From contig CABMDW010000108.1 of the NCBI GenBank assembly GCA_902385045.1, positions 1 through 36,717 on the forward strand: a DNA stretch of 36,717 nt. The letters are read 5' to 3'. The notes under the pieces were generated by a model. The model saw nothing but the letters and a program-made list of their open reading frames with translations. It was not told the DNA's origin and ran no database searches. Made by a program: the position numbers and the translations under genes. Origin of the DNA: an uncultured archaeon. GTDB lineage: Archaea; Micrarchaeota; Micrarchaeia; Norongarragalinales; CABMDW01. Below, one piece after another: positions 16,458 to 34,607 of the stretch. Each line of letters opens with the position of its first letter. Within the stretch, counting starts at the first letter, position 1.

Positions 16458-16886
16458 ATGTTTGAAGAAAAACTTAAAGAGAGATTTGACTTGGCTACTA
16501 GTGTCACTTTTCAAGAATCTAAAAACATTTCAGTCTACAATTGGTTTTATTATAAAGAAGGATTTTCACCGAGACTAGTGAAAACATTCGTAAGAGAATA
16601 TTCTCTTGAAGGATTAGGTTTAGATGTTTTTTGTGGAACCGGAACCACTAATTTGGCATTATGTGAAATGGGTTTGAAAAATGTTGGGTTTGACTTCAAT
16701 CCATTACTAGCACTTGTAGCAGAAGTTAAAACTACAGAATTTGATTACGATAAAACAAGTTTACTAATTAAAAAAGTGATAAACGAAAAACCTAAAATTG
16801 ACTTTAATTGGAAGACGCAATTAGTTGAAGAAACAAAATACTTTACAAAACAAAATTACGATGAAATACTTGAATTGAGAGAATAA
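16458..16886 (+). CDS. amino-methyltransferase (N4-C/N6-A type), N-terminal fragment carrying SAM-binding motif I
   Basis: It carries LDVFCGTGTTNLA (FxGxG motif I). It ends at the TAA at 16884-16886, and the next ORF continues in the same reading frame. Confidence 0.65.
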   Translation: MFEEKLKERFDLATSVTFQESKNISVYNWFYYKEGFSPRLVKTFVREYSLEGLGLDVFCGTGTTNLALCEMGLKNVGFDFNPLLALVAEVKTTEFDYDKTSLLIKKVINEKPKIDFNWKTQLVEETKYFTKQNYDEILELRE

Positions 16887-16907
16887 ATATTCTCTCTTGA
16901 TGAAGGA

Positions 16908-17612
16908 ATGGAAAAAAACTTTCTAAAAGTGGTACTAGCGTCAATGATAACTCCTTGCTCTTTCATTCACAAAGACGGAGGAGTGTTGAAAATAGAAAAG
17001 AGAAGCGTTCCTCCAGCTAAAAAATACTTTGAAAGAAAAGCAAAAGAAATGTTAAAAGAAGCCAAAAAAAGAATTCTTAAAGCTGAAAGCCAAATATTTC
17101 AAGTAGATTCCCGAGATTTTGAATTAAATAAAAAAGTAGATTTCATTATAACCAGCCCGCCTTACTTGAACAATGTAGACTATTCAAAAGTTTACGCTTT
17201 TGAAACCTCGCTAATATTTCCAAAAGAGTACCATGAATTCAGCAAAAATACTTTGAGAAGTCACGCTTTCTCTTCAGACAAAGACAATGAAGAATTTGAC
17301 TTGGATCAAATAAAGAAATTACTTGAAACAGACAGGGTTCCGCTTCAAGCCTTAAATTACTTAAGCGATTTAAAGAAAGTGATTAAGAATTGCTATAAGT
17401 ATACTAACAAAAATGCGAAAATATTTTTCAACGTAGCAAATGGCGTTTATGAAGAATCAAGACTAACTCTAGATAATGCACTAGCATTCCTAATGGAAGA
17501 AGAAGGTTTTGAAATTAATGAAATACTAGTCGCTAGAAAAATTCCTGTTTACTTGAAATCAGGAAATCGATTTACAACTAGAGAAAGCATAGTAGTAGCA
17601 GAAAAAAATTGA
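16908..17612 (+). CDS. amino-methyltransferase, C-terminal fragment carrying catalytic motif IV (SPPY)
   Basis: It carries FIITSPPYLNNVDYSKVY (motif IV, S/D/N-PP-Y). It is in the same frame as 16458..16886, separated only by a TAA plus 7 sense codons. Confidence 0.65.
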   Translation: MEKNFLKVVLASMITPCSFIHKDGGVLKIEKRSVPPAKKYFERKAKEMLKEAKKRILKAESQIFQVDSRDFELNKKVDFIITSPPYLNNVDYSKVYAFETSLIFPKEYHEFSKNTLRSHAFSSDKDNEEFDLDQIKKLLETDRVPLQALNYLSDLKKVIKNCYKYTNKNAKIFFNVANGVYEESRLTLDNALAFLMEEEGFEINEILVARKIPVYLKSGNRFTTRESIVVAEKN

Positions 17613-17624
17613 AAATAAAAAAAC

Positions 17625-18203
17625 TTATTCAAAATCTGCAGGTTGCTTGGCGAATTCTATTCCTTTTAATTCACAGTAAACTTTAGCCAATCCCCAGAAA
17701 ATTAAGGACAATGCCTTTCTTCCCTTGTTGTTAGTAGGAATTACAGCATCAACAAACTGTAAAGAATTATTAGTATCACACAATGCAATGACTGGAACAT
17801 TAATTTCAAAAGCTTCTTTCAAAGCCTGTTTGTCAACAGAAGGATCGGATAGAATAACCAAAGTAGGTTCTACAAAATCAGCTCTTGAAGGATTAGTAAA
17901 TCTACCTGGAGTAAATCTTCCAGCTATTACATTAGCTCCAATAACTTGACAAAAAGTCTTTATTGGTCTAATTGAATTGTCTTTCGAACCAATAACATAA
18001 ATGCCGCTAGCATCAAATTCTGAAAGCATTTTTGCCGCATTTCTTAAGCAGTCATCAGTTTTCTTTAGATCTAAGACGTGCAATCCGTCTTCTCTTGCCT
18101 TGTAAATATATGGTCTCATTGAACCGTGCTTTGTTTTGGTTCCAATGTGGACTCCTGCTTCTAATAATTTATCTTGTGGAATTACAAACTCTTGTTGACT
18201 CAT
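17625..18203 (-). CDS. rps2: 30S ribosomal protein S2 (uS2)
   Basis: 192 aa. LLEAGVHIGTKTKHGSMRPYIYKAREDGLHVLDLKKT is typical of archaeal uS2. Confidence 0.92.
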   Translation of the reverse strand: MSQQEFVIPQDKLLEAGVHIGTKTKHGSMRPYIYKAREDGLHVLDLKKTDDCLRNAAKMLSEFDASGIYVIGSKDNSIRPIKTFCQVIGANVIAGRFTPGRFTNPSRADFVEPTLVILSDPSVDKQALKEAFEINVPVIALCDTNNSLQFVDAVIPTNNKGRKALSLIFWGLAKVYCELKGIEFAKQPADFE

Positions 18204-18368
18204 TTAAAACACCTAAAAACCAGTTAGATTAATACTGTCTGGTTCGACTAGTAACAAATTCTTGAAACGTTAAGAAAACGGTTCAGTTGATTCGTTCCAG
18301 AAAAACTATGAAGAAAGTAGTTTAAAAACACAGTCATAAAAACAATTACTAACATATTTCTTACATCT

Positions 18369-18454
18369 GGAGGGGTAGCAAAGCCTGGTCAAATGCGCAG
18401 GGCTTAGAACTCTGTTACTTCGTGTATTCCTGGGTTCAAATCACAGCCCCTCCA
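18369..18454 (+). tRNA. tRNA-Leu (anticodon UAG), class II with long variable arm
   Basis: The acceptor stem is GGAGGGG/CCCCTCC with discriminator A. The D-arm is GCAAAGCCTGGTCAAATGC. The anticodon stem is CAGGG/CTCTG with loop CTTAGAA. The variable arm is TAC-TTCGT-GTA. The T-arm is CTGGG-TTCAAAT-CACAG with one G.A mismatch. No CCA is encoded. Confidence 0.85.
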
Positions 18455-18461
18455 CTAAAAC

Positions 18462-19016
18462 TTGCATTCAAAGAAAATCATTTTAAGCAATGAAGCCCTA
18501 ATTCGTCACGTGACACACAGAATTCTTGAAGCTGCTTTATTTTTAGCTAACAGACCTTTAACTAGAGAGGAATTAAGTAAAATTCTTCCTGGACAAAATA
18601 TAGATCAACTAGTTAATACGTTAAATCAATCTCTAGAAAATTCTTCTTTGGAAGTAATTTACGATGGAGATTCTGCCAGACTTCAAGTCAAACAAGAATT
18701 CTTGCCTAAAATTAAGGATTTGAGCAAAGGACCAGAACTAACTAGAAAAGGCATGAAAATTCTTGCGTTAATAGCTTCTAAAAAACAATTACTTCAGAAA
18801 GACTTGAAAAAATATTTCAGAGGAACATCTTACGATTACATTCACGAACTAGTAGAATTAGGATACTTGGAAAAACACAAGGACGGAAACAGTTGGTTGT
18901 TAAAACCTACGAAGAAATTTGAAGAACAATTTCAATTAGTACTCAAAAATGCTTCCGTTCCTAATACGAATTTAACTCAATTCTCTGAAAAAGAAGAAAC
19001 AGACTCTGACGAATAG
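18462..19016 (+). CDS. scpB: segregation and condensation protein B (ScpB)-like
   Basis: ILEAALFLANRPLTREELSKIL matches the ScpB N-terminal winged-helix signature. There is a second WH-like half and an acidic tail. The track start is a TTG, and no in-frame ATG lies nearby. Confidence 0.7.
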   Translation: MHSKKIILSNEALIRHVTHRILEAALFLANRPLTREELSKILPGQNIDQLVNTLNQSLENSSLEVIYDGDSARLQVKQEFLPKIKDLSKGPELTRKGMKILALIASKKQLLQKDLKKYFRGTSYDYIHELVELGYLEKHKDGNSWLLKPTKKFEEQFQLVLKNASVPNTNLTQFSEKEETDSDE

Positions 19017-19074
19017 GATAACTTAATAATTTCAGAAAGCCAATAATATTTATTCAAACAAGGTGTTTTAAAAA

Positions 19075-19812
19075 ATGCATTTCGTAGTAAAAGACTCGAA
19101 GAATTTCAAAACTTATGTTGATGCCATAACTGTTTTAGTTGATGAAGGAAGTTTTCAAATTGATTCACAAGGAATTCACTTGAGGACAATGGATCCATCA
19201 CAAATTGCGTTAGTAGATTTTAATCTTCCTAAAGAAGGATTAAAAGAATTGAATGCAGAAGAAAAAATTTCCTTAAGCTTAAACTTGCTAGACTTAGGAA
19301 AAATACTTTCCAGAGGAAAAGCAGACGATACTTTAACTGTTACTTTAGAAGAAAAGGAATCAAAATTAATGCTTGAATTCAAAGGAAAAACAAAAAGAAG
19401 TTTTAAAGTTCCATTGCTTGACTTGAACACTCAACTTCCGAAAGAACCTAAAGTACCTTTTGATTCAACCATAAAAGTTAGTGGGGGAGAATTCAAAGAC
19501 ATGCTAAAAGATGCTGGACTAGTTTCTTCACATGTAGTAATTGAAGCAAGTCCAACTGAATTAATCGTAGAAGCTCATGGAGATTCAGGAGATGTCCGAA
19601 TAGAAACTCCAAAAGGAGATTCAATAAAAATAAATGCCACTCAAAAAACTAGATCTATGTTTCCGTTTGAATACTTGGATAACATTACTAAAAATTGTCC
19701 TGACACTACAGAAATAGAATTATCATTGAAAACAGATGCTCCAATTCGAATATCATATAATCTAGGGGAAGCAACTCTAGCATATTACTTGGCTCCAAGA
19801 GTAGAAAATTAG
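19075..19812 (+). CDS. pcn: DNA polymerase sliding clamp (PCNA)
   Basis: 245 aa. FKTYVDAITVLVDEGSFQIDSQGIHLRTMDPSQIALVDFNL and the C-terminal LAYYLAPRVE are typical of archaeal PCNA. GGTG lies about 10 nt upstream of the ATG. Confidence 0.9.
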   Translation: MHFVVKDSKNFKTYVDAITVLVDEGSFQIDSQGIHLRTMDPSQIALVDFNLPKEGLKELNAEEKISLSLNLLDLGKILSRGKADDTLTVTLEEKESKLMLEFKGKTKRSFKVPLLDLNTQLPKEPKVPFDSTIKVSGGEFKDMLKDAGLVSSHVVIEASPTELIVEAHGDSGDVRIETPKGDSIKINATQKTRSMFPFEYLDNITKNCPDTTEIELSLKTDAPIRISYNLGEATLAYYLAPRVEN

Positions 19813-19819
19813 TTATAAA

Positions 19820-19833
19820 AGTATTTAAATACT
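19820..19833. promoter_or_regulatory. perfect 14-nt palindrome AGTATTTAAATACT centred on a TATA-like TTTAAA, 20-33 nt upstream of the ATG at 19853
   Basis: Read directly from the sequence. Its position fits an archaeal TATA box for a short-leader or leaderless transcript. Confidence 0.35.
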
Positions 19834-19852
19834 CTAATTGTTTTTGTAAAGT

Positions 19853-20272
19853 ATGGAGAAAATTCTTTGGCTAAGATTCGGAGGCAGTAGATTGCATTCC
19901 TTGAAAATAATTGGAGTATTTCTAATGTTTGCAAGCGCATTTCAAATTGCAGGCAGTTTCTATTCTTTATTCGTAACATTAAATCAAGCTGGAGCAGCTT
20001 TTAACAAACCAGATTATGTTCCAACATTCTTTACATGGAGTCTTGGAAGTACGGTTAATAATATTCAATTTACTAGAGAAGACTTTATAGGAGTATCTCT
20101 GAAGCCTGTGGCAGAATTATTGTTCTGGATTGCAATGGGAATATTATCTACGCTAGTCTATCAAGCTGGTAGTGTTTTCTTTCCAATAGAAGAACGAGAA
20201 CAGAACATAGCAGAACATCATAGGAAGCTTATTCAAAGAGTCGCACAAGCCAGTAAAATGAAAAAGAGATAA
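19853..20272 (+). CDS. hypothetical membrane protein
   Basis: 139 aa with two to three hydrophobic spans and a basic C-terminal tail. No family was recognised. Confidence 0.5.
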   Translation: MEKILWLRFGGSRLHSLKIIGVFLMFASAFQIAGSFYSLFVTLNQAGAAFNKPDYVPTFFTWSLGSTVNNIQFTREDFIGVSLKPVAELLFWIAMGILSTLVYQAGSVFFPIEEREQNIAEHHRKLIQRVAQASKMKKR

Positions 20273-20318
20273 ATTCGTATTCTTTTAGCATCAATATACG
20301 ATAATTATCGAAAAAACA

Positions 20319-20336
20319 AAATGCTTTAAAGCATTT
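20319..20336. promoter_or_regulatory. perfect 18-nt palindrome AAATGCTTTAAAGCATTT centred on TTTAAA, 18-35 nt upstream of the ATG at 20354
   Basis: Read directly from the sequence. A second perfect 12-nt palindrome, CGATAATTATCG, lies at 20299-20310 in the same 81-bp spacer. Confidence 0.35.
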
Positions 20337-20353
20337 CAGTCAAAATAGTTAAC

Positions 20354-21127
20354 ATGGACTGGAAGAAAATTATTACCATACTACTAATAGTAGCGTTTGC
20401 CGGAGAAATAGTAGTTTTGAGTTTTACCTCAACTAGCGCACCAGCAAATAATACTACTGAAACTTCAGTTCCTACTTCAACTCCAGCACCAGTATTATTT
20501 TCCGGAAAAGGATATAGTCAAATACAAATTCTAAATCTCAGTGGAAAAGGATATTTCCAATGTGCTGGCGAAACTACAGATTTAACTCAAATAATAAATA
20601 ATTCAAAATTATTTGATAGCATATCAAGAATACAACCTGGATTTTACAGAATTACTGCTCCAATCAATCTAACTTCAGAAGAATTTACTTCTAAGCAAGT
20701 TAAACTAGAAACATTAGTCAAAAAATACTGTAATAGCACTTTAACATACAGGTTGGGTTCAGTAAGATTACTGCTTCCTGAAGTCAACTTTACTTCTACT
20801 GATGGAAGATCACAAGTAATTAGTACAACACAACTAGAAAATTACTTTTACGATCAAGGTAGCACTGTCAACGCATTACTAATACCTACGTTTAAAGTGA
20901 ATGAAAGCGGTTATGCTGAAATGTATACTAGCACTCACGATTATGCAATAGACCCTAGTCAAGGAGATGTAGTTATAATAGAGCAAATAAATCCATTTGC
21001 ATCTTTATTTAATCAAAATACAAGCACTGATAATACTACTACAGTAAAGACAAACAATACTAATTCAACAGTAAACAGTACAGTAACAGTTAATACTAAC
21101 TCAACAAAACTTAATCAAACAAAATGA
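20354..21127 (+). CDS. hypothetical surface/secreted protein, T/N-rich and heavily sequon-bearing
   Basis: 257 aa with an N-terminal anchor (IITILLIVAFAGEIVVL). It has more than a dozen N-x-S/T sequons and a low-complexity C-terminus (NTSTDNTTTVKTNNTNSTVNSTVTVNTNSTKLNQTK). Confidence 0.55.
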   Translation: MDWKKIITILLIVAFAGEIVVLSFTSTSAPANNTTETSVPTSTPAPVLFSGKGYSQIQILNLSGKGYFQCAGETTDLTQIINNSKLFDSISRIQPGFYRITAPINLTSEEFTSKQVKLETLVKKYCNSTLTYRLGSVRLLLPEVNFTSTDGRSQVISTTQLENYFYDQGSTVNALLIPTFKVNESGYAEMYTSTHDYAIDPSQGDVVIIEQINPFASLFNQNTSTDNTTTVKTNNTNSTVNSTVTVNTNSTKLNQTK

Positions 21128-21140
21128 GGTTGTTAAAAAT

Positions 21141-21815
21141 ATGAATCCAAAGAATAATGACGTAGTAGAACTTATGCTCACTACAATGAATCAAGATAAT
21201 GCAGTTTATGACACTAATGACATTGAAGTAGCAAAAAAAAATAATATCTTTGACGAGAGAATAAGATATGAACCATTCGTAATTCCTTTAGGAAAAAATA
21301 GGATTGTCAAAAAACTTGAAGAAGAAGTTTTGAAAGCAAACGAAAACGAAGAAAAAACAATTGAAGTTGAAAATCCTTTCGGAGAAAGAAAAGCAGAACT
21401 AGTAAGAGTAATGTCAATGAACGAATTCAGAAGCCAAGACATTAACCCTTTTCCTGGAATGCCTATTGAAATTGAAGGATTGAAAGGAAAAGTCCAAAGC
21501 GTTTCTGGAGGAAGAGTGCGTGTTGATTTTAACCATGACTTGGCAGGCCAAAACGTAAAATACACGTTCAAAATATTAAAAATTGGTTCAACTCCAGCAG
21601 ACAAAGCAGGAATGCTAGTCAAGGCTTACTTAAAACAATTTGGAGAAACAACTCAAAAAATTGAAGGAGAAAAATTAATTGTAGAAGCAAACAAAAAAGT
21701 TGCCAAGACAATTGACTATCAAACCCAAAAAATAAGATTGATAGGAGATACTTTAGCCATTGTTCCTGAAGTAAAAGAAGTAGAATTCAAGGAAACATAC
21801 GGAGTACAAAACTAA
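21141..21815 (+). CDS. FKBP-type peptidyl-prolyl cis-trans isomerase, archaeal long type with IF (flap) insert
   Basis: YEPFVIPLGKNRIVKKLEEEVL..., the IF-domain region, and RVRVDFNHDLAGQNVKYTFKILKI match the archaeal FKBP/SlyD pattern (DFNHxLAGK). An extra C-terminal domain follows. Confidence 0.8.
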   Translation: MNPKNNDVVELMLTTMNQDNAVYDTNDIEVAKKNNIFDERIRYEPFVIPLGKNRIVKKLEEEVLKANENEEKTIEVENPFGERKAELVRVMSMNEFRSQDINPFPGMPIEIEGLKGKVQSVSGGRVRVDFNHDLAGQNVKYTFKILKIGSTPADKAGMLVKAYLKQFGETTQKIEGEKLIVEANKKVAKTIDYQTQKIRLIGDTLAIVPEVKEVEFKETYGVQN

Positions 21816-21861
21816 AAATCTTTTAAGCAATTGAATACACTAATTAGTTAGCACGAGCTTT

Positions 21862-21952
21862 GGGCCCGTAGTCGAATGGTAAGACGCCTCTCTCACAAAT
21901 TAAATACAATTGAGTACAGAGGAGATCCGGAGTCCGATTATCCGCGGGCCCA
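21862..21952 (+). tRNA. tRNA-Val (anticodon CAC) with a ~19-nt intron at or near the canonical 37/38 position
   Basis: The acceptor stem is GGGCCCG/CGGGCCC with discriminator A. The anticodon stem is CCTCT (21887-21891) / AGAGG (21918-21922), and the loop starts CTCACA. About 19 extra nt (~21898-21916) contain TTGAG, which can pair with the CTCA(A) of the anticodon loop, as in a bulge-helix-bulge. The T-arm is non-canonical (CGGAG-TCCGATT-ATCCG). Confidence 0.7.
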
Positions 21953-21960
21953 CTAAAAAA

Positions 21961-22731
21961 TTATTTCTTGAAAAATTCAACTATTTTACTAATAGAAGTA
22001 GAATCCAGCATGTTAGCGCCATGACCTTCATTTTGTAATTTAACAAAAGTTAAAGATCCAGTATAATTGTCTTGTATTTTCTGTGAAGAATCAAAAGCAT
22101 AAGTATCTTCGTTGCTTGCAAAAATAAGAAGAATTGGGCCGTTGCTTTGATTTAGATCATCAACAATACTTACTCCCCTGTAACTTAATCCGGGAGATAA
22201 TAGCACTGCCTTGCCAATATTATGCTTTGAAGCAAAATTAAATGCAAGATTAGCTCCAATACTCGCTCCAACAAATCCGATTAATTGAACGTTATTAGAC
22301 TTAAGGTAATTTGCTGCGGCATCAACGTCATTTTGCATGCTAATAAAATCTTGATCAGTGAATTGAAACATTTGCTTTGGATAAATGGTTTCACCCATTC
22401 CTCTCAAATCAATTGAAAGAGTAGTAATATTATTTTTGTTTAATTCTTTTTCTAAAGCAATGAAACTAGATTTGTCTTTTCCAATTTGAGGCAATAATAT
22501 GACTCCATGATTAGAGGTTTTATTAAAATCAAAACTTAAGTTAGCACCATCAATCGTTTGAATATAATTTCCTGAAGCTTGGATTGTAACAATTTGGGTA
22601 GTTGAAGAAGAATTGTTAAAATCTGATTTAGCTGCTTGGGCTGCAGAATTAAGTTGGTTAAAACCACTTAAAGCTAAATAGAATAATATGCCAGAAGAAA
22701 TGAGTATTAAAATCAACGTAGAAGTTTTCAT
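21961..22731 (-). CDS. secreted/membrane-anchored alpha/beta-fold hydrolase
   Basis: 256 aa with an N-terminal signal or anchor. The nucleophile elbow is GFVGASIGAN (G-x-S-x-G), and a C-terminal NEGHGANM region provides a candidate catalytic His. Confidence 0.7.
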   Translation of the reverse strand: MKTSTLILILISSGILFYLALSGFNQLNSAAQAAKSDFNNSSSTTQIVTIQASGNYIQTIDGANLSFDFNKTSNHGVILLPQIGKDKSSFIALEKELNKNNITTLSIDLRGMGETIYPKQMFQFTDQDFISMQNDVDAAANYLKSNNVQLIGFVGASIGANLAFNFASKHNIGKAVLLSPGLSYRGVSIVDDLNQSNGPILLIFASNEDTYAFDSSQKIQDNYTGSLTFVKLQNEGHGANMLDSTSISKIVEFFKK

Positions 22732-22744
22732 AAATAATTAATCC

Positions 22745-23305
22745 TTAAGGTATAATGTTCCCTACTTCATCCAAAGCAATGAATTTCTTGTCAGAACCCT
22801 GTTGCCATAATACAAGCCAATAAGGATCTCTTTTCAAAGTTTTAGTAAAATCATTAACTCCAGTCCATAGGAGAGGGCAACAAGTGGTGTCAATAACATC
22901 GGGTTTTGAAGCGCATGCTCTTCCGCCCTTAGAAATGATATTTTGAACGTCTAAATCTTTAGAAGAAGCTATTATGGCTTCTTCAGGTTGAATGATTGGA
23001 CCGCTAACATTGCAGTCTTTAACTAAATAAATTTTCCTAGAATAAATTGGGTTCAAATTGTATTCCATTTCAACTAAAGAAGGACAATTTGAATTAGGAT
23101 TGAGTGAAACAAAAGCGATTATTTTACTAGAGTTTTGTTCGCTATAATTCAAGCTTCTTATGCAGAAATCATTGAATTGAGTAGAAATGTCGTTTTCAAT
23201 TTTTTTGGAAATATCTAACGAAACTCCCTTCGAAGTAGAAGGAGCAGACAAATTTAACACTAATAAGACTGCTAAAAGGATTAACAGTAGAGTCCAAAAT
23301 TTCAT
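22745..23305 (-). CDS. hypothetical secreted Cys-containing protein
   Basis: 186 aa with a Sec-type signal peptide (MKFWTLLLILLAVLLVLNLSAPS). Several Cys residues are present, including CC. No family was recognised. Confidence 0.5.
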   Translation of the reverse strand: MKFWTLLLILLAVLLVLNLSAPSTSKGVSLDISKKIENDISTQFNDFCIRSLNYSEQNSSKIIAFVSLNPNSNCPSLVEMEYNLNPIYSRKIYLVKDCNVSGPIIQPEEAIIASSKDLDVQNIISKGGRACASKPDVIDTTCCPLLWTGVNDFTKTLKRDPYWLVLWQQGSDKKFIALDEVGNIIP

Positions 23306-23369
23306 TGCTAATAATATATTCTTTGAACGTATTTAATTATTAAACCTTAAACAAAAATGGTGAATTTTA

Positions 23370-23828
23370 ATGAAAATAACGGTAATAGAATGTTCTGAAA
23401 ATGCTTTTTCAGTATACAATGAATTGGTTTTGGAAGCACAACACCTTACTTCAGATTTGACGTTAAATAAACTAGAATGTCCTCTAGCGGAAAAAACTCA
23501 TGTGTTCGTTAAGAAAGCTTTGCTTAGTGGAAGTGATGCAGTAATTTATTGCGTTGATTCTCATGCTGCAGATGAAGCAAGCTTGGCGCATTTACGAGAA
23601 TTAATTGAAAAACTGGAATTAGAAACAGGAAAAATGTGTTTAGAATGTTCTCCTACTTTCAAAAATGACAAAGAAGAATATTCAAAGGAAGCACTAAAAG
23701 AATTAACTACAATAATAAAAATAATTTTAGATTCCGAAGGATACTCTGTAAAAGCAGAGTCTACATCTAATCCTGAAGAAAATAAGGAAGAAATTCTCGA
23801 CGTGGATAAAGGAAAAAGCTTGTTCTAA
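23370..23828 (+). CDS. hypothetical acidic cytosolic protein
   Basis: 152 aa with GGTG 9 nt upstream of the ATG. No motif was recognised. Confidence 0.5.
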   Translation: MKITVIECSENAFSVYNELVLEAQHLTSDLTLNKLECPLAEKTHVFVKKALLSGSDAVIYCVDSHAADEASLAHLRELIEKLELETGKMCLECSPTFKNDKEEYSKEALKELTTIIKIILDSEGYSVKAESTSNPEENKEEILDVDKGKSLF

Positions 23829-24151: not shown

Positions 24152-24209
24152 AATAATACATTTTAAAATAAGTTTAATAAAAATACTGTTGTTCAATCAA
24201 GTGAATCCA

Positions 24210-24620: not shown

Positions 24621-24668
24621 AACCCATCGAAAATAGATTATTAAATTACAAATCGTTAATTTTGCTTA

Positions 24669-25115
24669 ATGAGAGTTCTAAGTTTTCTTTCAATGGCAAT
24701 ATTCATAGGCACTTTTGCAGTTGTATATTTTACTGACTTTAAGGATCCTTTAATGTTCAATCCTCCTTTCTTTCATGATGCTAACAACTTTTACTTGACT
24801 GAAATCGTATCTGCGTTCTTTTCATTCCTTTGCTCAATGCTATTCTTTGGAGCCTCTGGGCCAATAATAGCAATAATACAAGCATCAAGATATGCCAGCA
24901 TACTTGCGACTTCAAATTCTAATTTGAACCTGATAGCCACGGCACTATTAGCCATACCGAATCTATTATTCGTGATAGCCGGAACGGAATACGGTGGAAA
25001 ATACTTGGATCAAATGAACGGAGAAGACAAAACTTTGAACGGTAGAACTGAATTAATTTTAGGAGCACTAGCAATGGTAATAGTCATTCTACTCAAAGTG
25101 GTGATTGCAGGTTAA
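24669..25115 (+). CDS. small membrane protein A of an 8-gene cluster (about 4 TM), unknown function
   Basis: 148 aa and hydrophobic. Its stop overlaps the next start (TAATG at 25113-25117). Confidence 0.6.
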   Translation: MRVLSFLSMAIFIGTFAVVYFTDFKDPLMFNPPFFHDANNFYLTEIVSAFFSFLCSMLFFGASGPIIAIIQASRYASILATSNSNLNLIATALLAIPNLLFVIAGTEYGGKYLDQMNGEDKTLNGRTELILGALAMVIVILLKVVIAG

Positions 25116-25627
25116 TGCCAGTACTATTTGATATCTTAGGAGATATTGCAAACTTAAGTTTCGTAATAAAAATAATGTGTTTTTCATACTTGACTTACTG
25201 GCTCTATGCTACTTTTTATAATTCTAAAATAATATTCGGAATTGCACTAATTGTGGCAGGTTATTTTACGATAACTTACTCTGATGCTACTACTGCATTA
25301 GTAGCAATATTCGGTTTATTGTTTGTTTTGGGACCACAATTACAGCAGACAATTTGGTTTGGATTGGCTCCACTATTGCAGCCATTCGGAATTGATTTGA
25401 TGGGAAATACGGTAAATCAAAAAATGTCGATGTTAGAACAGGAAAAACATTCGAAAGAATTACAATCAAAGATAGCTGCTGGAGAAGCATCACAAGAAGA
25501 AGTAGAAGCTTTTCAAAGGCAACAACAGTTGCAACAAATGGCAGCTATGGAAGGTCAAGAGGACATTGGCGATGACGTTCCAAATTATGATGCAATGAAA
25601 AAAAGATCTATGATGTTAAGGAGATGA
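25115..25627 (+). CDS. small membrane protein B (about 3 TM plus Q/E-rich cytosolic tail), paralogous N-terminus to protein C
   Basis: 170 aa. The N-terminus is MPVLFDILGDIANL..., followed by YWLY. The tail is SQEEVEAFQRQQQLQQMAAMEGQEDIGDD. Confidence 0.6.
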   Translation: MPVLFDILGDIANLSFVIKIMCFSYLTYWLYATFYNSKIIFGIALIVAGYFTITYSDATTALVAIFGLLFVLGPQLQQTIWFGLAPLLQPFGIDLMGNTVNQKMSMLEQEKHSKELQSKIAAGEASQEEVEAFQRQQQLQQMAAMEGQEDIGDDVPNYDAMKKRSMMLRR

Positions 25628-25634
25628 AAATAGA

Positions 25635-25931
25635 ATGAGCATATTTGATGACATTGGAAACATTTTCAACATAATTTGGATAATAGCACTTGCATTCATC
25701 GCTTACTGGCTATATAATTGGGCTAAAGAAACATTGGTCTTTTCAAGTACTCTGGCCTATATAGTAGCAGGAATATTGATTTACTATCTAGTATTTGAAT
25801 ATCCTGTCATAGGATTTTTAGGAGTTACTGGATGGATTATAATAACTTCAGGATTGTTAATGGGATTAGCAATATTTGCTCCAGTATTCGGAAACATCAT
25901 GTATAAAATGAAAAAAGGTGAAGGCCAATGA
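25635..25931 (+). CDS. small membrane protein C (about 3 TM)
   Basis: 98 aa. MSIFDDIGNIFNI... and YWLY are shared with protein B. The gap to B is 7 nt. Confidence 0.6.
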   Translation: MSIFDDIGNIFNIIWIIALAFIAYWLYNWAKETLVFSSTLAYIVAGILIYYLVFEYPVIGFLGVTGWIIITSGLLMGLAIFAPVFGNIMYKMKKGEGQ

Positions 25932-26215
25932 GTTTGAGAAAAACTCTTGCTTTGTACAGAAAAACAAAATTAGAAAGAAATATTTGGGTTGACAAAAAAT
26001 GGCGTTTCCTAGCGTTTATTTTATTCGCATTATTTTTATGGGCATTTTACGCATGGATTCTAAACTATGATGCTTCTACATTCAGATGGTTTTTAGCAGG
26101 AATATTAATAGGATTCTGTGTTGCATCATTAGTAATAGAAATAGAACATTTACTTGGATTGTATAAAGTAGTAAAACACATGGACAAGAAAAATGTTAAG
26201 AAGATGAAAAAATGA
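25928..26215 (+). CDS. small membrane protein D (2 TM, basic termini)
   Basis: 95 aa with an ATGA start/stop overlap with protein C. Confidence 0.55.
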   Translation: MSLRKTLALYRKTKLERNIWVDKKWRFLAFILFALFLWAFYAWILNYDASTFRWFLAGILIGFCVASLVIEIEHLLGLYKVVKHMDKKNVKKMKK

Positions 26216-26445
26216 TTGAATTGAGTTTTATTCAAGATTTCGGGCTAGTAATAGTGATACTAGTGTTTTTTGCAGTGTACAGTTACTTGAATAATTCTTT
26301 AATAAAAAATCCAAGTTTAGCATTATTCGTGACCATAATAATAATGCTTTTACTCGTAATTCCTTATGATTGGTTCAAAATACTGTTGTTTCTAGCTCTC
26401 GTGTTTTACGGCTTCTTCCAAACGTTTAAGCCTTGGGAATGGTAA
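26212..26445 (+). CDS. small membrane protein E (2-3 TM)
   Basis: 77 aa with an ATGA start/stop overlap with protein D. Confidence 0.55.
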   Translation: MIELSFIQDFGLVIVILVFFAVYSYLNNSLIKNPSLALFVTIIIMLLLVIPYDWFKILLFLALVFYGFFQTFKPWEW

Positions 26446-26451
26446 AATAAA

Positions 26452-26730
26452 ATGGTTGACTTCACGTTTTTTATTTTAATAATATTTGCAGTTCTAGCTT
26501 TGCTTCAAGGTAATTTATACATTGGAATAGGATTATTTGTTGTAGCCGTACTTGTAACAAAAGATAAATTATTCATAATAGTAGGACTCTTAGCGGGAGC
26601 TTACTTTGTTGCAAGTAAATACTTGAACTGGGACTTGCCAAGCTGGATTAATTTGATAATACTTGGAATAATCATGGTTTTAATTCTTAGAAACATGAAA
26701 GAAGAGCCAATGCCGCAACAATACTATTAA
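26452..26730 (+). CDS. small membrane protein F (3 TM)
   Basis: 92 aa, 6 nt after protein E. Confidence 0.55.
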   Translation: MVDFTFFILIIFAVLALLQGNLYIGIGLFVVAVLVTKDKLFIIVGLLAGAYFVASKYLNWDLPSWINLIILGIIMVLILRNMKEEPMPQQYY

Positions 26731-26785
26731 CTCATTAATAAAAATATAAAAACAGTTTAAAAGCAAAGTAAATTAATACATTAAT

Positions 26786-27115
26786 ATGAAGACCATTACC
26801 TTCTTGGCTTTAAGCATTCTAGCATTTTACTTTGTTACAATTAATGAATACTTCATATCTTTTCTAGTACTGATTTCAATGGTTATAGCAATCGTATATG
26901 AAGGATTCAAACTACCTCACGTTGAGGGACACGGTAGCGGACATGCCGGTTCAGCACATGCGGGGCATGATAATCATCAGCCTAATATTGGAGCTAGTAT
27001 TGGTTCAATATTTGATTGGTTTGGAAGAAGCATGACCACACTAATTAGAGCCTTAAGTGGAGAGCCGAAACCAGAAAAAAAAGCTGAAACTGGAAAAAGC
27101 GACGGACATCACTAA
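26786..27115 (+). CDS. small membrane protein G with histidine-rich segment
   Basis: 109 aa. Two N-terminal TM spans are followed by HVEGHGSGHAGSAHAGHDNH, and the protein ends in DGHH. Confidence 0.55.
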   Translation: MKTITFLALSILAFYFVTINEYFISFLVLISMVIAIVYEGFKLPHVEGHGSGHAGSAHAGHDNHQPNIGASIGSIFDWFGRSMTTLIRALSGEPKPEKKAETGKSDGHH

Positions 27116-27160
27116 TCAACAAAAAGCTTTAAAATCAATTAAAACAAGAAAACTTACGCT

Positions 27161-27316
27161 ATGGCATTTCCATTTTTTGGTTTAGTAAACATAATGGGGC
27201 TAATAGACGTAATAGCAGGAATAATACTACTTAATTCTGGTTCTTCAATTTCGGGCTTTCTAGGAATATGCTTGCTAATAAAAGGAGCAATAAGCGTGTT
27301 TTCAGTAGAAGCTTAG
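27161..27316 (+). CDS. small membrane protein H (51 aa, 2 TM), not in the ORF track
   Basis: ATG at 27161 and TAG at 27314-27316. My translation is MAFPFFGLVNIMGLIDVIAGIILLNSGSSISGFLGICLLIKGAISVFSVEA. It is on the same strand as A-G. Confidence 0.4.
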   Translation: MAFPFFGLVNIMGLIDVIAGIILLNSGSSISGFLGICLLIKGAISVFSVEA

Positions 27317-27317
27317 A

Positions 27318-27599
27318 TTATTTTAACTTAAAAAGTAACTGTCTCTGTGATTCAAGTATTTGTTTATTCAAATCTATTAGAATATCTAATTTAGTTTTAA
27401 GTTCAGAATAATCTGGAGTATTAACCTGAGAAACAATATTGACTGGAGCCTGAACTTCTTTGGGCTTTTCAACAGCTTCAAGGGCTTGTGATACTAAAGT
27501 TTCTGCATTTTCTACACCCATTTGATTAAGCGTAGTAATTATGTCGTCCTTATTCATTCCCTTAGATACTAAATCTCTAATGATTTCATTAATTTCCAT
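27318..27599 (-). CDS. hypothetical small protein (helical N-terminal domain plus C-terminal coiled-coil-like segment)
   Basis: 93 aa with an ATG start. No family was recognised. Confidence 0.45.
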   Translation of the reverse strand: MEINEIIRDLVSKGMNKDDIITTLNQMGVENAETLVSQALEAVEKPKEVQAPVNIVSQVNTPDYSELKTKLDILIDLNKQILESQRQLLFKLK

Positions 27600-27725
27600 A
27601 AAACAGTTTCACTTTTTACGTTATTTAATCTTTGCACATTGTTCTTTATTTGAAGCAATAATTCAAATTTTATGGAAACATAAGGAACATATAATTTTTA
27701 ATGGATACCCACGTGAATAATATAG

Positions 27726-29090: not shown

Positions 29091-29091
29091 G

Positions 29092-30189
29092 TTAAATAAA
29101 ATCGTTTACGAATCCATCAAAATCTTCTTCAGTCAAAAATGAAATTAGTTTCACTAGTTTTTCTTTTTCTTCTTTGACAACATAGGAAGCAACTAATTCT
29201 TCAACCGGATCTTCTAGTATTATTTGGTTGGTTTGAAAGCCCTTGAAGTTATCTTCAAAATCTTCCTCTAAAAATAATTCACATTTTTGATTAACTGAAT
29301 TAATGAATTCTTCCTTGTTCCTAAAAATTCCGTTAAATTTTAATTTTATTAGAGGAAAAGAAAAAGAATTACAGGCGTCAAGCACAAATTTTTCTGCTTT
29401 AGCTTGATTGTCAGTAGATAAAAACAAGAATTTTCTGGTTTCAAATTCCTTAAACTCAATAACATTAGAATTAGTATCTACAATCAGAACTCCTTTTGGT
29501 TTTGTTTCTTCTTCTTTCATTTGAGTGACTACAGTGCTTCCTGGAATGACCAAGTGCTTTCCTTGGACAGTCAAATCTCTATGCCAGTGAATATGGCCAT
29601 TAACGTACAAATTAAAGCCATCAGGCAGATCCGAGACGCTAATGCTTTCTGGAGCCATTGGAACTATTTCTGAAACATTCTGATGAAAAACAAAAACGTT
29701 AAAAGCATTTTCGACGGGTTTGAAATTTCCTGCCTTTAAAGATTGCAAGACAAATTCTTCAGGAACTCCACCCAAACCTTGAATGCATACTTTTTCGGTC
29801 TTTCCTCCTGTTGTTTTTTCAAAAATAATTCGTTTATTGTGGCAATTTATCATTAAATGCGCGTCATCAAAGATTTCGATTATGTTAGCCAAGCCTTTGG
29901 TGCGTCTTTCATGAGTTCCATGGATTCCGATTAAAGCCGGGTAATCTGATAATTCTTTTCCAGAATCATAGTCAGAAATTTTTAAATTAGTTTTAGGCCT
30001 AGAAGTTACAAAACAGTTTACTGCTTCCTTAATAGTTTCTTGTGTAGGAATTCGGTAATCAAATAAGTCACCAGGAAGTAAAATGAAATCACAATTCAAT
30101 GAATTGCATAAGTCCAAGGCTTTTTTTGCTTGAATTGCGGCATCACCGTTAAATCCAAAGTGAAAATCCGATGCAATTCCAAATTTCAT
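29092..30189 (-). CDS. mre11: Mre11/SbcD-family calcineurin-like metallophosphoesterase (DNA repair nuclease)
   Basis: The phosphoesterase motifs are present in order: DFHFG, LLPGDLFD, GIHGTHE and NGHIHWH. The 365 aa size fits archaeal Mre11. No rad50, herA or nurA lies adjacent. Confidence 0.7.
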   Translation of the reverse strand: MKFGIASDFHFGFNGDAAIQAKKALDLCNSLNCDFILLPGDLFDYRIPTQETIKEAVNCFVTSRPKTNLKISDYDSGKELSDYPALIGIHGTHERRTKGLANIIEIFDDAHLMINCHNKRIIFEKTTGGKTEKVCIQGLGGVPEEFVLQSLKAGNFKPVENAFNVFVFHQNVSEIVPMAPESISVSDLPDGFNLYVNGHIHWHRDLTVQGKHLVIPGSTVVTQMKEEETKPKGVLIVDTNSNVIEFKEFETRKFLFLSTDNQAKAEKFVLDACNSFSFPLIKLKFNGIFRNKEEFINSVNQKCELFLEEDFEDNFKGFQTNQIILEDPVEELVASYVVKEEKEKLVKLISFLTEEDFDGFVNDFI

Positions 30190-30216
30190 GAAATAAGTAG
30201 GAAAAAGTGCAATAAG

Positions 30217-30507
30217 TTAGTTTGTTTTTTTAGAGGAGGACATTCCTTTGATTTTTTGTTCTTGCATTTCTATTACTTGAGTTCTATCCTGTAATTCTTT
30301 TAATTCAGCGCTTAATTCGGAAGCCAAAGCTTTTGAATCTTTTTTGACTAGAATGTTTCCATAAAACCGATAGGTTTCAGTAGCCTTTTCGGCTTCTGAT
30401 AAAGCGCGTTTTATTTCTTCAATTCTAAAATTCAATTCTTGCTTCTGATATGCAAATAATTGCAATTGTTGTTTAACTAAATCTTGGGTTTTATTATCTT
30501 CTGCCAT
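30217..30507 (-). CDS. pfdB: prefoldin beta subunit-like
   Basis: 96 aa with a coiled coil, then a hairpin (YRFYGNILVKKDSKALASEL), then another coiled coil. That layout is typical of prefoldin beta. Confidence 0.65.
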   Translation of the reverse strand: MAEDNKTQDLVKQQLQLFAYQKQELNFRIEEIKRALSEAEKATETYRFYGNILVKKDSKALASELSAELKELQDRTQVIEMQEQKIKGMSSSKKTN

Positions 30508-30513
30508 TAAAAA

Positions 30514-30738
30514 TCACTCTTCTTCAATTAAGGTATTTACTCTAGTAATTATAGTCAAATCCCTTAATAACGAATTCGATATTGCACGAAGTTTGGCTAA
30601 TGAAGGTTGTTTTATGGTGAAAAATAATTTGTTTTTAAGAACTGCATTATATTCTTTCTTGTCTTTTAACGCGTTGAAAATGCGTTTGTTTTCATCGCCA
30701 TCAAAATCCAATACGAAAGAACATGTAAATTCAAGCAT
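30514..30738 (-). CDS. KEOPS subunit Pcc1-like small protein
   Basis: LEFTCSFVLDF...FFTIKQPSLAKLRAISNSLLRDLTIITRV resembles the Pcc1 pattern (LRAsxNSfLr). Pcc1 commonly neighbours pfdB in archaea. I prefer the Met at 30738 over the track start at 30774. Confidence 0.5.
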   Translation of the reverse strand: MLEFTCSFVLDFDGDENKRIFNALKDKKEYNAVLKNKLFFTIKQPSLAKLRAISNSLLRDLTIITRVNTLIEEE

Positions 30739-31753
30739 TTTTCTCCAACTCTTCAATTCTTGATAAGAGTGCATTATACTTTTGAATTAAAGTATTACGC
30801 AGGTCTTCAGAAATTTCACTTCTAATAAAAGCCTGTTCTACAAAATCAATTTGAACTTCAATTAATTCTTTGACTTTAGAAGCATGATCTCCTAATTCTA
30901 ATTCAGGGTGATTCAAAACTAATTCGTTTAATCTTCTTTCAACGCTTTTTGCAAGAATCTTATGTTGTTTTGTAATATCCTTGAATATTTTTTCACTAAT
31001 CAAACCACGATCATAATCTCTCTTCAAATAACTTGAAGCAAAACTCATTGCCCTAGATTCCGTTACTAGACTCAAATATTCGTTTTCCAAAGGATTTTCT
31101 CTGATTCCCAATAATTTTGAGCTCGCAAGTTTTGCAGTGAAAACCGAAATGAGAATAGTGAAGAAAATGACTATAATTGTGATAGAGAAAATGCTTTGAG
31201 CTTCTGCCAAAGAAAACCAGCCTCTATTTACGGCAAAAGCATAAGAACCGGTTATCACTCCGGATAAGACTATTGAAGCTAAAGCTGCAGAAACTGCTCC
31301 ACGGGGATTTCCAATCCAAGAAATAAACATTTTTTCTTTGAAAGAAAAATCTTTGTCAAACAACATACTAAGCCAAATGGTCAAAGGTCGAATAAAGAAG
31401 CAGAATGCTATTGCAATCAAAAATCCTGGAAATAAATTGGAATAAAGTAAACTTAAATTAACTTCAGATCCTAGAACTAAAAAGACTAATGCAGTTGCAA
31501 TGAAATTCAAGTTTTCCCAAAAACCAAGAGTCCTGTGCCTGCTGATTGCACTAACGTTCTTGCCTCTGACATAACTACCGAAAACCAAGGCAGTGAACAC
31601 TACGGAAATAACTCCGGATGCACTAATGCCCCAAGCGTTAAGGCCTTCAGCAATTGCATATGAAGACATCATGAAAGCCAGTGAAGAAAATAATAGGTCA
31701 TCATCAACTTTGAATTGACGTAAAAGGGCGTTACCCAAAAGTCCTACAGTCAA
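30731..31753 (-). CDS. Na+/H+ antiporter (CPA1, NhaP-type), C-terminal part including cytoplasmic tail
   Basis: 340 aa with about 6-7 TM followed by a soluble helical domain. It is in the same frame as 31766..32350. The track start is a TTG with no SD-like element. Confidence 0.65.
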   Translation of the reverse strand: MTVGLLGNALLRQFKVDDDLLFSSLAFMMSSYAIAEGLNAWGISASGVISVVFTALVFGSYVRGKNVSAISRHRTLGFWENLNFIATALVFLVLGSEVNLSLLYSNLFPGFLIAIAFCFFIRPLTIWLSMLFDKDFSFKEKMFISWIGNPRGAVSAALASIVLSGVITGSYAFAVNRGWFSLAEAQSIFSITIIVIFFTILISVFTAKLASSKLLGIRENPLENEYLSLVTESRAMSFASSYLKRDYDRGLISEKIFKDITKQHKILAKSVERRLNELVLNHPELELGDHASKVKELIEVQIDFVEQAFIRSEISEDLRNTLIQKYNALLSRIEELEKNA

Positions 31754-31765
31754 ACCGACGAGACA

Positions 31766-32350
31766 TTAAAAGAAGATAATGCTAACAAATTGGGTTGAAA
31801 CTGAAGAAAAGGAAATTACTCCTCCCGCTAGTAATGTGGTTAAAACCAAGAAAATAGTAAGAGAAGAAGCATCGTTGAAAGCAGTTTCACTTTCAATAAT
31901 GCTTGAAATCTTTTTTTCAATTCTCAATTTTCTGAGTAATGGGAGAATTGAAGCAGGATCAGTGGAAGCTAAAATAGCTCCTAAGAGCAATGCAGCCAGC
32001 CAGCTGAAGCCGAGGAAAAAGTAAGCTGCTAAAGCTACTCCTGAAATCGTGAAGACTACTGCAACCGTATTAATTGACAAAACCGTAGACAATTTTTTCA
32101 ATAATTGTTTGCTGTCTGCTCTTGCTCCGTCGTTGAACAAGATTATTGGAACGCTTATGACGGCCAAAAAACCTAGGGAAATTCCTATTTCTAGGGGCTT
32201 GAAAATTTTTAAAACTTCATTACCGAAAATAAAACCTGTTAACAATAATGCAACGAATTCAGGCCAGTTGAAAAATTTGGCTATGCGCGCCACTAGAATT
32301 CCTGCAATCAAAACGAAAATAATTTGTCCAAGAAAAATGTCAAAAGCCAA
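31766..32350 (-). CDS. Na+/H+ antiporter (CPA1, NhaP-type), N-terminal part
   Basis: 194 aa and about 5-6 TM. It has ASTDPASILPLL and ESETAFNDASSLTIF (the ES..ND ion-binding motif). It ends at the TAA at 31766-31768. Confidence 0.7.
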   Translation of the reverse strand: MAFDIFLGQIIFVLIAGILVARIAKFFNWPEFVALLLTGFIFGNEVLKIFKPLEIGISLGFLAVISVPIILFNDGARADSKQLLKKLSTVLSINTVAVVFTISGVALAAYFFLGFSWLAALLLGAILASTDPASILPLLRKLRIEKKISSIIESETAFNDASSLTIFLVLTTLLAGGVISFSSVSTQFVSIIFF

Positions 32351-32412
32351 TCAAAAACCACTTAACAGTATAAATAACAAAATGGAAATTTAAAAAGTTA
32401 TAGATGAAAAAA

Positions 32413-33612
32413 TTAATCTCCTAGAATTCGTTTTTCAATTATGACTCTAATTTTATTCGGATCAAAGCCTGGACAAATTAAAGTAGCGTGTCCTCTGACT
32501 CCTTTTCCGGATTCAATTGTGGTTATGAGTCCTAAAGATTCCAAGTCATGAAGATATTCTCTATACCATCGTGAACTTCTTGGTTCAACTTTGGTTTTTC
32601 TGCAAATGCTCTTATATTTTTCGTAAACGTGACCTGAAAAATAATATTTGTCTCCATTTTCTTCAACTAGTTTACTATAGGCTTCAGAATCAGAGAGGCA
32701 TAAAGCATACAAAACTAATTGCTGATGCTGAGGGAGTCCGGAAACTAATTCGAAAGACTTGTCTTCGTCTGCTTTCTTTCTTGCATCTTCAACTTCTTTT
32801 TCAGTAACTACTTTAAGTTTTTTAGAATCAGCTAGTTCTCCGGCCCACAATAATAAAGATAACGCGTATCTTACGTCTCCATTTTCTGAAGCTGCAATTG
32901 CTGATGCTAAATTCAAGGCTCCGTGAAGTATTGCTCCATCATTAAAAGATGCTTTAATCCTATCTTCAAGGATTCCGGATAATTGTGAAGCATTGTAAGA
33001 ATGAAAAACCAATTCTTTTTCGCATAATGAACTTTTGCTTCTGGCATCTAATTTTTTCTTGAAGTCGATTCTGTTGGAAATTCCTATTACGGAAATGCTG
33101 CCTTTCTTCAAGTCATCATTTGTTCTTGTAAGCGTGTATACTAAATCGTCTAAATCTTTTACGGCGTCAATTTCGTCTAATACTACAATCAAATTTTTTC
33201 CTTGATCATCATCTTCAATCCAGTCTAGAAGTTTCTCGTAAATAGTGGCCATTGAGTGTCCGGTTCTTGGCAATTCAATGATGAAATCGCCGACCAGTTT
33301 TTGTATTACTTTATAGCGTGAATCATAAACTCTGCAATTCATGTACGTGGTAAAGACTCGGGTATTTTCTTCGGCTTTTATTTTTTGCAAAACTAGTTTT
33401 ACTGCAGCAGTTTTTCCGCAACCAGAATTGCCGTAAATAAATAAATTGTTTGGCTTTACTCCTTTGAAAGCTGGAGCAATTAATTCCATTAAAGTTCTTA
33501 ATTCATGATCACGATACAACATTTCAGGCGGATAATAGTGCGGACTCAGAACATTCTTATTCTTAAACACGCTTGCCTTGTTTAAAATATCAGAAAAAGA
33601 GAGCGAAGACAT
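32413..33612 (-). CDS. cdc6: ORC1-type DNA replication protein (Orc1/Cdc6)
   Basis: 399 aa. It has Walker A GNSGCGKTA, Walker B IVVLDEID, the sensor region ISVIGISN and a C-terminal winged helix. Confidence 0.92.
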   Translation of the reverse strand: MSSLSFSDILNKASVFKNKNVLSPHYYPPEMLYRDHELRTLMELIAPAFKGVKPNNLFIYGNSGCGKTAAVKLVLQKIKAEENTRVFTTYMNCRVYDSRYKVIQKLVGDFIIELPRTGHSMATIYEKLLDWIEDDDQGKNLIVVLDEIDAVKDLDDLVYTLTRTNDDLKKGSISVIGISNRIDFKKKLDARSKSSLCEKELVFHSYNASQLSGILEDRIKASFNDGAILHGALNLASAIAASENGDVRYALSLLLWAGELADSKKLKVVTEKEVEDARKKADEDKSFELVSGLPQHQQLVLYALCLSDSEAYSKLVEENGDKYYFSGHVYEKYKSICRKTKVEPRSSRWYREYLHDLESLGLITTIESGKGVRGHATLICPGFDPNKIRVIIEKRILGD

Positions 33613-33707
33613 AAAAAACCTAGTTTAAATTAATTAAGTTAAATACGAAGAGCAACTATTAAAAACAAAGGTCATACATTCATTTAAAAGACAATTAAAA
33701 ATAAGTC

Positions 33708-33747
33708 TAACTAGTAAGCTTTTTTAAGACAGGCTTAGTACTAGTTA
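33708..33747. repeat. imperfect inverted repeat TAACTAGTAAGC ... GCTTA(GTA)CTAGTTA in the cdc6/sepF divergent spacer
   Basis: TAACTAGTA (33708-33716) and TACTAGTTA (33739-33747) are exact reverse complements. TAAGC/GCTTA extends the arms with a 3-nt bulge. Confidence 0.5.
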
Positions 33748-33793
33748 CAAGTGATTTTAAACTGGAAATTTACTCTATTAGGTGAATAATTTT

Positions 33794-33853
33794 ATGGGAA
33801 TATTTGATAAATTGGGAAAGGCATTAGGAATAGGAAAAGAATTGAGTGTTTAA
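33794..33853 (+). CDS. 19-codon ORF encoding a SepF-type amphipathic N-terminal peptide (MGIFDKLGKALGIGKELSV), in frame with the sepF core
   Basis: ATG at 33794 with GGTG at 33781-33784. A TAA at 33851-33853 ends it, and the same frame continues into 33893..34153. Confidence 0.45.
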   Translation: MGIFDKLGKALGIGKELSV

Positions 33854-33892
33854 GAATTCATTACTTCTGAAGAAGCTGAAAATGTCGATATT

Positions 33893-34401: not shown

Positions 34402-34406
34402 GGCTT

Positions 34407-34577: not shown

Positions 34578-34607
34578 GAATATAGTCTACAAAATAATGA
34601 ATTAATC

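Follow-up and report, generated by a model that had tools for sequence, protein, structure and literature searches.

Three conserved genes on a single contig of an uncultured archaeon (CABMDW010000108.1), encoding a methyltransferase, an NhaP-type Na+/H+ antiporter and the division protein SepF, are each interrupted by one in-frame TAA codon. The whole contig was analysed and is referred to here as the window; it has 36,717 bases, 33% GC and about 46 genes (45 of them complete), with 11,279 codons. Its archaeal hallmarks include a threonyl-tRNA synthetase with the archaeal editing domain, topoisomerase VI subunits A and B, PCNA and Cdc6/Orc1, as well as archease, prefoldin, an H+-pyrophosphatase and a pilin with a class-III signal together with its prepilin peptidase. 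The window comes from an uncultured DPANN archaeon of the Micrarchaeota; a scan with Cdc6 against one genome per species yielded matches only in Micrarchaeota (Norongarragalinales, Anstonellales and metagenome-assembled genomes of Micrarchaeia), at 47-63% identity. Look-ups of exact matches to Cdc6, the 62-amino-acid pilin and the SepF fragment had no hits, and Cdc6 scans of genome and metagenome contigs reached 63% identity at most; the collections searched contained neither an identical sequence nor one from the same species.

Searches with the methyltransferase (85% identity) and with SepF (88%) both led to the same 876,621-bp contig of the closest relative (JBGGHI010000001.1, assembly GCA_041643055.1), which has about 82% nucleotide identity to the window, such that about 18% of the bases differ. 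Two loci of this relative, L011 around the methyltransferase gene and L014 around sepF, are collinear with most of the window from 5.6 to 36.7 kb. We compared the relative's proteins to the window by tblastn, which matched 35 of them, and tabulated lengths and terminators for 34 of these pairs. Lineage-specific amino acid changes were counted with the next relative (L013) as the outgroup for a set of five genes, and with a family consensus as the outgroup for the three interrupted genes.

The methyltransferase gene (16458-17612, plus strand; 384 codons) carries a single in-frame TAA at codon 143 (16884-16886). The S-adenosylmethionine (SAM)-binding FxGxG motif is encoded 5′ of this stop, and the SPPY motif and a Pfam N6_N4_Mtase match, obtained with the stop masked as X, lie 3′ of it. 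The orthologue in the closest relative (P0121, in L011) is an uninterrupted protein of 384 amino acids that is 85% identical and aligns without gaps across the stop; the gene is likewise uninterrupted in more than 100 homologues. At the site of the stop, TCA (Ser) is found in the closest relative and GCT (Ala) in the next one, and the column is variable across the wider family (Lys, Ala, Arg, Glu and others). Synonymous codon differences from the relative outnumbered non-synonymous ones both before the stop (46 to 22) and after it (72 to 37). Unique amino acid changes were fewer in the window protein than in that of the relative, whether L013 (12 compared to 28) or the family consensus (1 compared to 3) served as the outgroup.

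We also noted several properties of this methyltransferase family and of the site itself. The family (proteins P0121-P0240, about 360-420 amino acids) is widespread in DPANN archaea, occurring in Micrarchaeota, Aenigmarchaeota, Nanoarchaeota, Altiarchaeota and Diapherotrites, and its members share a layout with the FxGxG motif close to the N-terminus, followed some 180 residues later by SPPY. The family has no close solved structure, and a PDB sequence search with the methyltransferase returned marginal matches only. In three genomes, the gene has a nucleotidyltransferase gene on one side and rpS2 on the other, and the family may have a housekeeping role rather than one in restriction-modification. 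The stop sits in GAATAAATATTC (16881-16892), where a 5+5 inverted repeat (GAATA-AA-TATTC) is completed by the same C>A change that gives TAA. Chance may account for this, or it may be a hint of mutagenesis at a quasi-palindrome (template switching); nothing comparable was found at the NhaP or SepF stop sites.

The NhaP gene (30731-32350, minus strand; 539 codons) has its single in-frame TAA at codon 195 (31766-31768), inside the transmembrane domain and opposite TCT (Ser) in the closest relative. A single Pfam Na_H_Exchanger match (residues 13-405) spans the stop when it is masked as X. The orthologue (L014, 6932-8551) is an uninterrupted protein of 539 amino acids with 90.5% identity and a gap-free alignment across the stop, and the stop column is Ser in all 17 of 17 orthologues, none of which is interrupted. 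Codon differences were again mostly synonymous on both sides (68 to 12 before the stop; 114 to 38 after it), and unique amino acid changes numbered 5 in the window and 4 in the relative.

The third gene, sepF (33794-34153, plus strand; 119 codons, with an ATG at 33794), has TAA at codon 20 (33851-33853), where the closest relative has GAC (Asp). SepF is the FtsZ membrane anchor of archaea, and sepF is an essential division gene. The protein consists of an N-terminal amphipathic membrane-targeting helix (MGIFDKLGKALGIG), a linker and the SepF domain, which Pfam places at residues 42-115; thus, the stop falls in the linker, behind the N-terminal helix. The relative's orthologue is uninterrupted, of nearly the same length (120 amino acids compared to 119), 88% identical and aligned without gaps across the stop, and sepF is also uninterrupted beside Cdc6 in eight further Micrarchaeota loci, in which the codon is GAA, GAG or GAC. 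Among 35 database homologues, all uninterrupted, the stop column is Glu in 32 and Asp in 3. The 19 codons ahead of the stop encode a peptide identical to that of the relative, with synonymous differences present, and the whole protein has 2 unique amino acid changes in the window compared to 3 in the relative.

The Cdc6/Orc1 gene and sepF are divergent neighbours (32413-34153), an arrangement that is also found in nine related Micrarchaeota genomes (L001-L006, L009, L010 and L014). The spacer between them (33613-33793; 181 bp) is AT-rich and contains several inverted repeats, for example 33695-33716 with 33739-33760, and is a candidate replication origin adjoining a division gene.

The first-pass annotation, made from the letters of the window, had reported an in-frame TAA at each of these three positions, with the frame unchanged beyond the stop and the two sides reading as one continuous homologue, and had described all three changes as substitutions and none as a frameshift. 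All of this was borne out, by translation and by the gap-free alignments to uninterrupted orthologues described above. Moreover, these are the only such lesions that we detected. An internal stop was present in just three of the 35 tblastn matches (the methyltransferase, NhaP and SepF), and a frameshift in none, each match forming one aligned stretch; the remaining 31 pairs in the table of lengths and terminators had neither an internal stop nor a frameshift. The regions of the window with no counterpart in the relative have full-length Pfam matches and no sign of interruption. Several other candidates were considered and rejected: the reading frames 26212-26445 and 26452-26730 are separate genes in the relative too; the frame that follows the short ParA/Mrp gene (2019-2657) does not go on to encode protein; and the same-frame neighbours 34383-34577 and 34578-35564, as well as 34608-35564 and 35571-35984, are not interruptions.

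The interrupted genes do not look like genes in decay. Both sides of the stops are under purifying selection. In the five-gene count, 68 unique amino acid changes fell to the window and 64 to the relative; in total, we found no excess of changes in the window lineage (76 compared to 74 unique changes over about 2,900 codons), although this count has too little power to rule out the 10 or so additional changes that a burst of unselected changes or errors would be expected to bring. Since the window lineage shows no acceleration, the lesions are young, and whatever produced the stops is very recent relative to the divergence of the two genomes. Each gene has the defining lesion of a nonsense pseudogene, a premature stop created by base substitution relative to intact orthologues, and in none of the three did we find the signs of an older pseudogene, namely relaxed selection or further lesions. 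Thus, if these are pseudogenes, they are very young ones.

A single kind of in-frame stop, occurring in conserved genes, is also what one would see if TAA had been reassigned to an amino acid throughout the genome. Such reassignments occur in bacteria, with UGA read as Trp in Mycoplasma and insect endosymbionts and as Gly in Gracilibacteria and Absconditabacteria (PMC8629427), and the window resembles these cases in that one kind of stop appears within conserved genes of a small, AT-rich, symbiotic genome. However, the bacterial reassignments involve UGA, which is no longer a terminator, is frequent within genes, specifies one amino acid and is read that way clade-wide, and none of this holds in the window. 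TAA ends 28 of the 45 complete genes, at positions where the relative ends the orthologues. Among the 34 orthologue pairs, most of which encode proteins of equal length, TAA is the terminator of 20 in the window and 17 in the relative, and in 7 of the 34 the window has TAA opposite a TGA (six genes) or a TAG (one gene) of the relative, while the reverse swap between TGA and TAA was seen in three. In-frame TAA occurs just 3 times in 11,279 codons, and not at all in the closest relative or in the eight other Micrarchaeota loci. Furthermore, the residues aligned with the stops are inconsistent: an invariant Ser in NhaP, a conserved Glu or Asp in SepF, and a variable site in the methyltransferase. 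Since TAA terminates normally and three kinds of residue are replaced, reassignment is ruled out. The first-pass annotation had judged a global reassignment unlikely; we go further and conclude that a variant code is refuted by the data in hand.

A more limited change in decoding, in which an ochre suppressor peculiar to this strain or weak termination at UAA partly rescues TAA alleles while frameshifts and other stops are purged, is harder to dismiss because the loss of three genes within 37 kb, including sepF, would be costly. It would account for several features at once: TAA alone is seen, with no TGA, TAG or frameshift; an essential gene is among those struck; apart from the stops, purifying selection on the interrupted genes is normal; and two of the three replaced residues are Ser, which a Ser-inserting suppressor would restore exactly. 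In laboratory genetics, ochre-suppressor strains of E. coli and yeast carry tRNA genes mutated to anticodon UUA, and such strains would tolerate nonsense alleles of one stop type while the same codon ends most genes, which is the picture in the window. The view of tRNAs is limited to the window's two tRNA genes, which also leaves room for a suppressor.

The direct signs of such decoding are nonetheless missing. The first-pass annotation had proposed to look for a tRNA with anticodon UUA, and neither of the two tRNA genes that ARAGORN and Rfam find in the window is one: tRNA-Leu(UAG) (18369-18455, plus strand; ARAGORN) and an intron-containing tRNA-Val(CAC) (21862-21952, plus strand; Rfam, 44.8 bits) are not UAA suppressors. 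The tRNA-Val gene was missed by ARAGORN even in its intron mode and was called once a 19-nt intron at the canonical 37/38 site had been taken out; pairing between this intron and the anticodon region (CUCA/UGAG) is what one would expect of an archaeal bulge-helix-bulge splice site. No gene for the archaeal release factor aRF1 is present in the window. We found no common 3′ context after the stops (the next codons are ATA, TGT and GAA), and RNA structure in the 75 nt downstream was not unusual (z-scores of +1.3, -1.5 and -0.2 relative to shuffled sequences). The stop positions are not kept in relatives, as they would be in programmed readthrough; every relative examined has sense codons at all three sites. 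Thus, the suggestion of context-dependent readthrough or suppression gained no positive support from context, structure, tRNA genes or replaced residues.

The usage of TAA as a terminator likewise argues against leaky decoding at UAA. TAA is the preferred terminator and is not avoided relative to the sister genome (20 compared to 17 of the 34 pairs), and back-up stops have not built up behind TAA terminators, as the next in-frame stop lies at a median distance of 10 codons in the window and 9 in the relative. Unlike the laboratory suppressor strains, the window has no suppressor tRNA, and its replaced residues point to no single inserted amino acid; with Glu or Asp at the SepF site, no one amino acid suits all three. 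Moreover, three sites are too few to establish a pattern (P = 0.12-0.27, see below). We know of no natural ochre-suppressor case in archaea, and in neither Archaea nor Bacteria is UAA known to have been reassigned or to be suppressed in nature; our literature search for stop-codon recoding in Micrarchaeota or DPANN archaea found nothing. The Codetta screen, which covered more than 250,000 prokaryotic genomes, detected reassignments of no stop codon other than UGA, and thus none of UAA (PMC8629427). We therefore regard leaky decoding of UAA as unlikely. Its most explicit form is less likely still, namely a natural ochre-suppressor or weak-termination strain, arising most simply by a change of a tRNA-Ser anticodon from UGA to UUA, in which TAA alleles including that of sepF are rescued and which would represent an "ambiguous intermediate" of stop-codon capture.

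We considered that each gene might now work as two polypeptides, made by termination and re-initiation nearby and assembling into an active protein. Start codons do follow soon after each stop (ATG 16908, TTG 31753 and ATG 33893), gene calls from this contig in the databases include downstream pieces of 234, 313 and 86 amino acids, and two-piece methyltransferases and transporters are workable in principle. None of the possible restart codons (the three above and ATG 31672), however, is preceded by an independent start signal of the kind that the first-pass annotation had raised for the downstream halves: a Shine-Dalgarno-like core precedes 0 of these four, compared to 22 of the 45 genuine starts, and all are ordinary internal codons that are conserved in the relative. 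Moreover, the cut in SepF would part the 19-residue membrane anchor from the core, defeating the purpose of the anchor. A functional split of this kind is thus very improbable.

A stable split, as known from Nanoarchaeum equitans, is refuted outright, since relatives at 85-90% protein identity, as well as more distant ones, have single genes, and every relative examined has one uninterrupted gene in each case. The likeness is that in both DPANN archaea a conserved protein is encoded in two pieces. In N. equitans, the halves are at separate loci, each with expression signals of its own, and the split is stable, whereas the pieces in the window have not been relocated but are contiguous and in frame, one codon apart, without signals of their own, and whole in the sister genome.

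We next asked how unusual three TAA interruptions without a frameshift would be. With the codon usage of the window, 5.5% of random substitutions are nonsense changes, and 50-54% of these give TAA; the probability that three of three nonsense changes are TAA is 0.12 under uniform mutation, 0.16 under AT-biased mutation and 0.27 if only G:C>T:A changes occur. With such values, the identity of the codon is not significant by itself and carries little weight; in a genome of 33% GC most nonsense changes give TAA, and a run of TAA alone does not by itself point to recoding. The lack of frameshifts is more telling, in one respect. At assumed indel rates, about 55 substitutions arising in a burst without selection should be accompanied by 3-11 indels, and the probability of seeing none is about 0.004-0.06. 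This result speaks only against a burst of that sort in which every type of mutation occurs, and it fits a process that makes substitutions alone. Under G:C>T:A changes, 14% are nonsense and 65% of these are TAA, such that three stops imply about 21 such changes in 34 kb; three TAA codons with no frameshift are therefore unremarkable for a substitution-only process. Thus, the argument against decay that had been drawn from stops that are all TAA and never frameshifts overstated the codon identity (P about 0.1-0.3) but made a fair point about the frameshifts. What is unusual is the density of interruptions, with 3 of 46 genes struck, including sepF.

These same numbers bear on the possibility that the TAA codons are consensus, base-calling or assembly errors, for example from damage-induced G>T changes at low coverage or from systematic substitution errors of long reads, and that the genes are intact. 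As expected of changes that are free of selection, the stops strike a Ser that is invariant and a Glu/Asp that is conserved; one of the genes affected is essential; the three genes have no other sign of decay; a single substitution separates every stop from a plausible sense codon; and the gene fragments are known from this contig only. Random errors, however, would mean about 55 substitution errors in 34 kb (about 0.1-0.2%), far above what is found in a short-read or HiFi consensus, and a noisy long-read consensus would bring homopolymer indels, of which there are none in the 35 matched proteins. In an AT-rich sequence full of homopolymers, this lack of indels argues against such a consensus. 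There is also no measurable excess of unique amino acid changes in the window (the low-power count of 76 to 74 given above), and no sequence motif common to the three sites suggests a systematic error linked to methylation. Errors are thus possible only as a special substitution-type artefact, and although we take this explanation seriously, we think it improbable.

The reading that we prefer, with slightly more than even confidence, is that three independent and very recent nonsense substitutions are present in the sequenced population and that TAA keeps its normal meaning as a terminator. Recent nonsense mutation under AT-biased pressure was among the options raised at the outset, and it fits best: the relative is intact at all three genes, there is no other decay and TAA is a normal terminator. 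The last step in the methyltransferase would be TCA>TAA, a change that is directly visible against the closest relative. With Ser fixed in NhaP and Glu/Asp fixed in SepF, the last steps there were likely TCA>TAA and GAA>TAA, respectively. All three would then probably be G:C>T:A transversions, a class that oxidised guanine left unrepaired and AT-biased mutation pressure in a reduced genome of 33% GC would be expected to produce. As for the products, the truncated methyltransferase would retain its SAM-binding motif but lack the catalytic SPPY motif, NhaP would end inside a membrane helix, and the membrane anchor of SepF would be unlinked from its FtsZ-binding core; all three are presumably non-functional.

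Several considerations weigh against three real nonsense alleles. Three knock-outs in 46 genes, including sepF, are a great burden for a genotype that is viable and in the majority. Of the three stops, two fall on strongly conserved residues, which looks unselected and fits errors equally well. In addition, the ancestral codons that we infer for NhaP and SepF each require one extra step from the codon of the relative.

If the stops are indeed recent nonsense alleles, they are close to the young nonsense (ochre) pseudogenes of host-dependent, AT-rich, reduced genomes, with which they share a single base change, intact orthologues, TAA as the main route and conservation of the frame and of both flanks. 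They differ from the lesions of decaying genomes, which mix frameshifts, deletions and all stop codons under relaxed selection; in the window, there are three TAA codons and no other lesion in 46 genes, and an essential division gene is struck. Thus, the feature is of an ordinary kind, at a slightly odd density. Whether the stops are plain nonsense changes or errors, little follows in practice beyond annotating the three genes as interrupted and checking the base accuracy of the contig. If, instead, leaky decoding of UAA were true, such that the genome held many more interruptions by TAA only together with a tRNA that reads UAA, this archaeon would be a living intermediate of a change in the genetic code.

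The comparison of the two genomes revealed further differences in gene content. A gene for a P-type ATPase (756 amino acids), which lies between the topoisomerase VI B and MarC genes in the window, is not present in L011; the regions that differ are 9478-11748, 18204-18461 and 20273-23828. L011, in turn, has a UMPH-1-like gene and a gene for a 155-amino-acid protein ahead of the pyrophosphatase gene, as well as an MscL gene between rpS2 and the tRNA-Leu gene. The gene order of the window and L011 diverges after the gene at 19853-20272, at which point the relative has a DDE transposase.

Two other groups of genes drew our attention. An uncalled open reading frame (ORF) of 56 codons at 34408-34577 (plus strand) starts with MDQKGQITTEYVLL, which resembles a class-III (pilin-type) signal peptide; this ORF sits between the annotated gene for a 62-amino-acid pilin and the prepilin peptidase gene, and the corresponding 211-bp gap in the relative has no called gene. 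Finally, seven small genes in a tight row (24669-27115, plus strand) encode proteins of 77-170 amino acids that are predicted to be multi-helix membrane proteins and have no Pfam match; their order and lengths are conserved in the closest relative (L014, 935-3325), at 56-91% identity.

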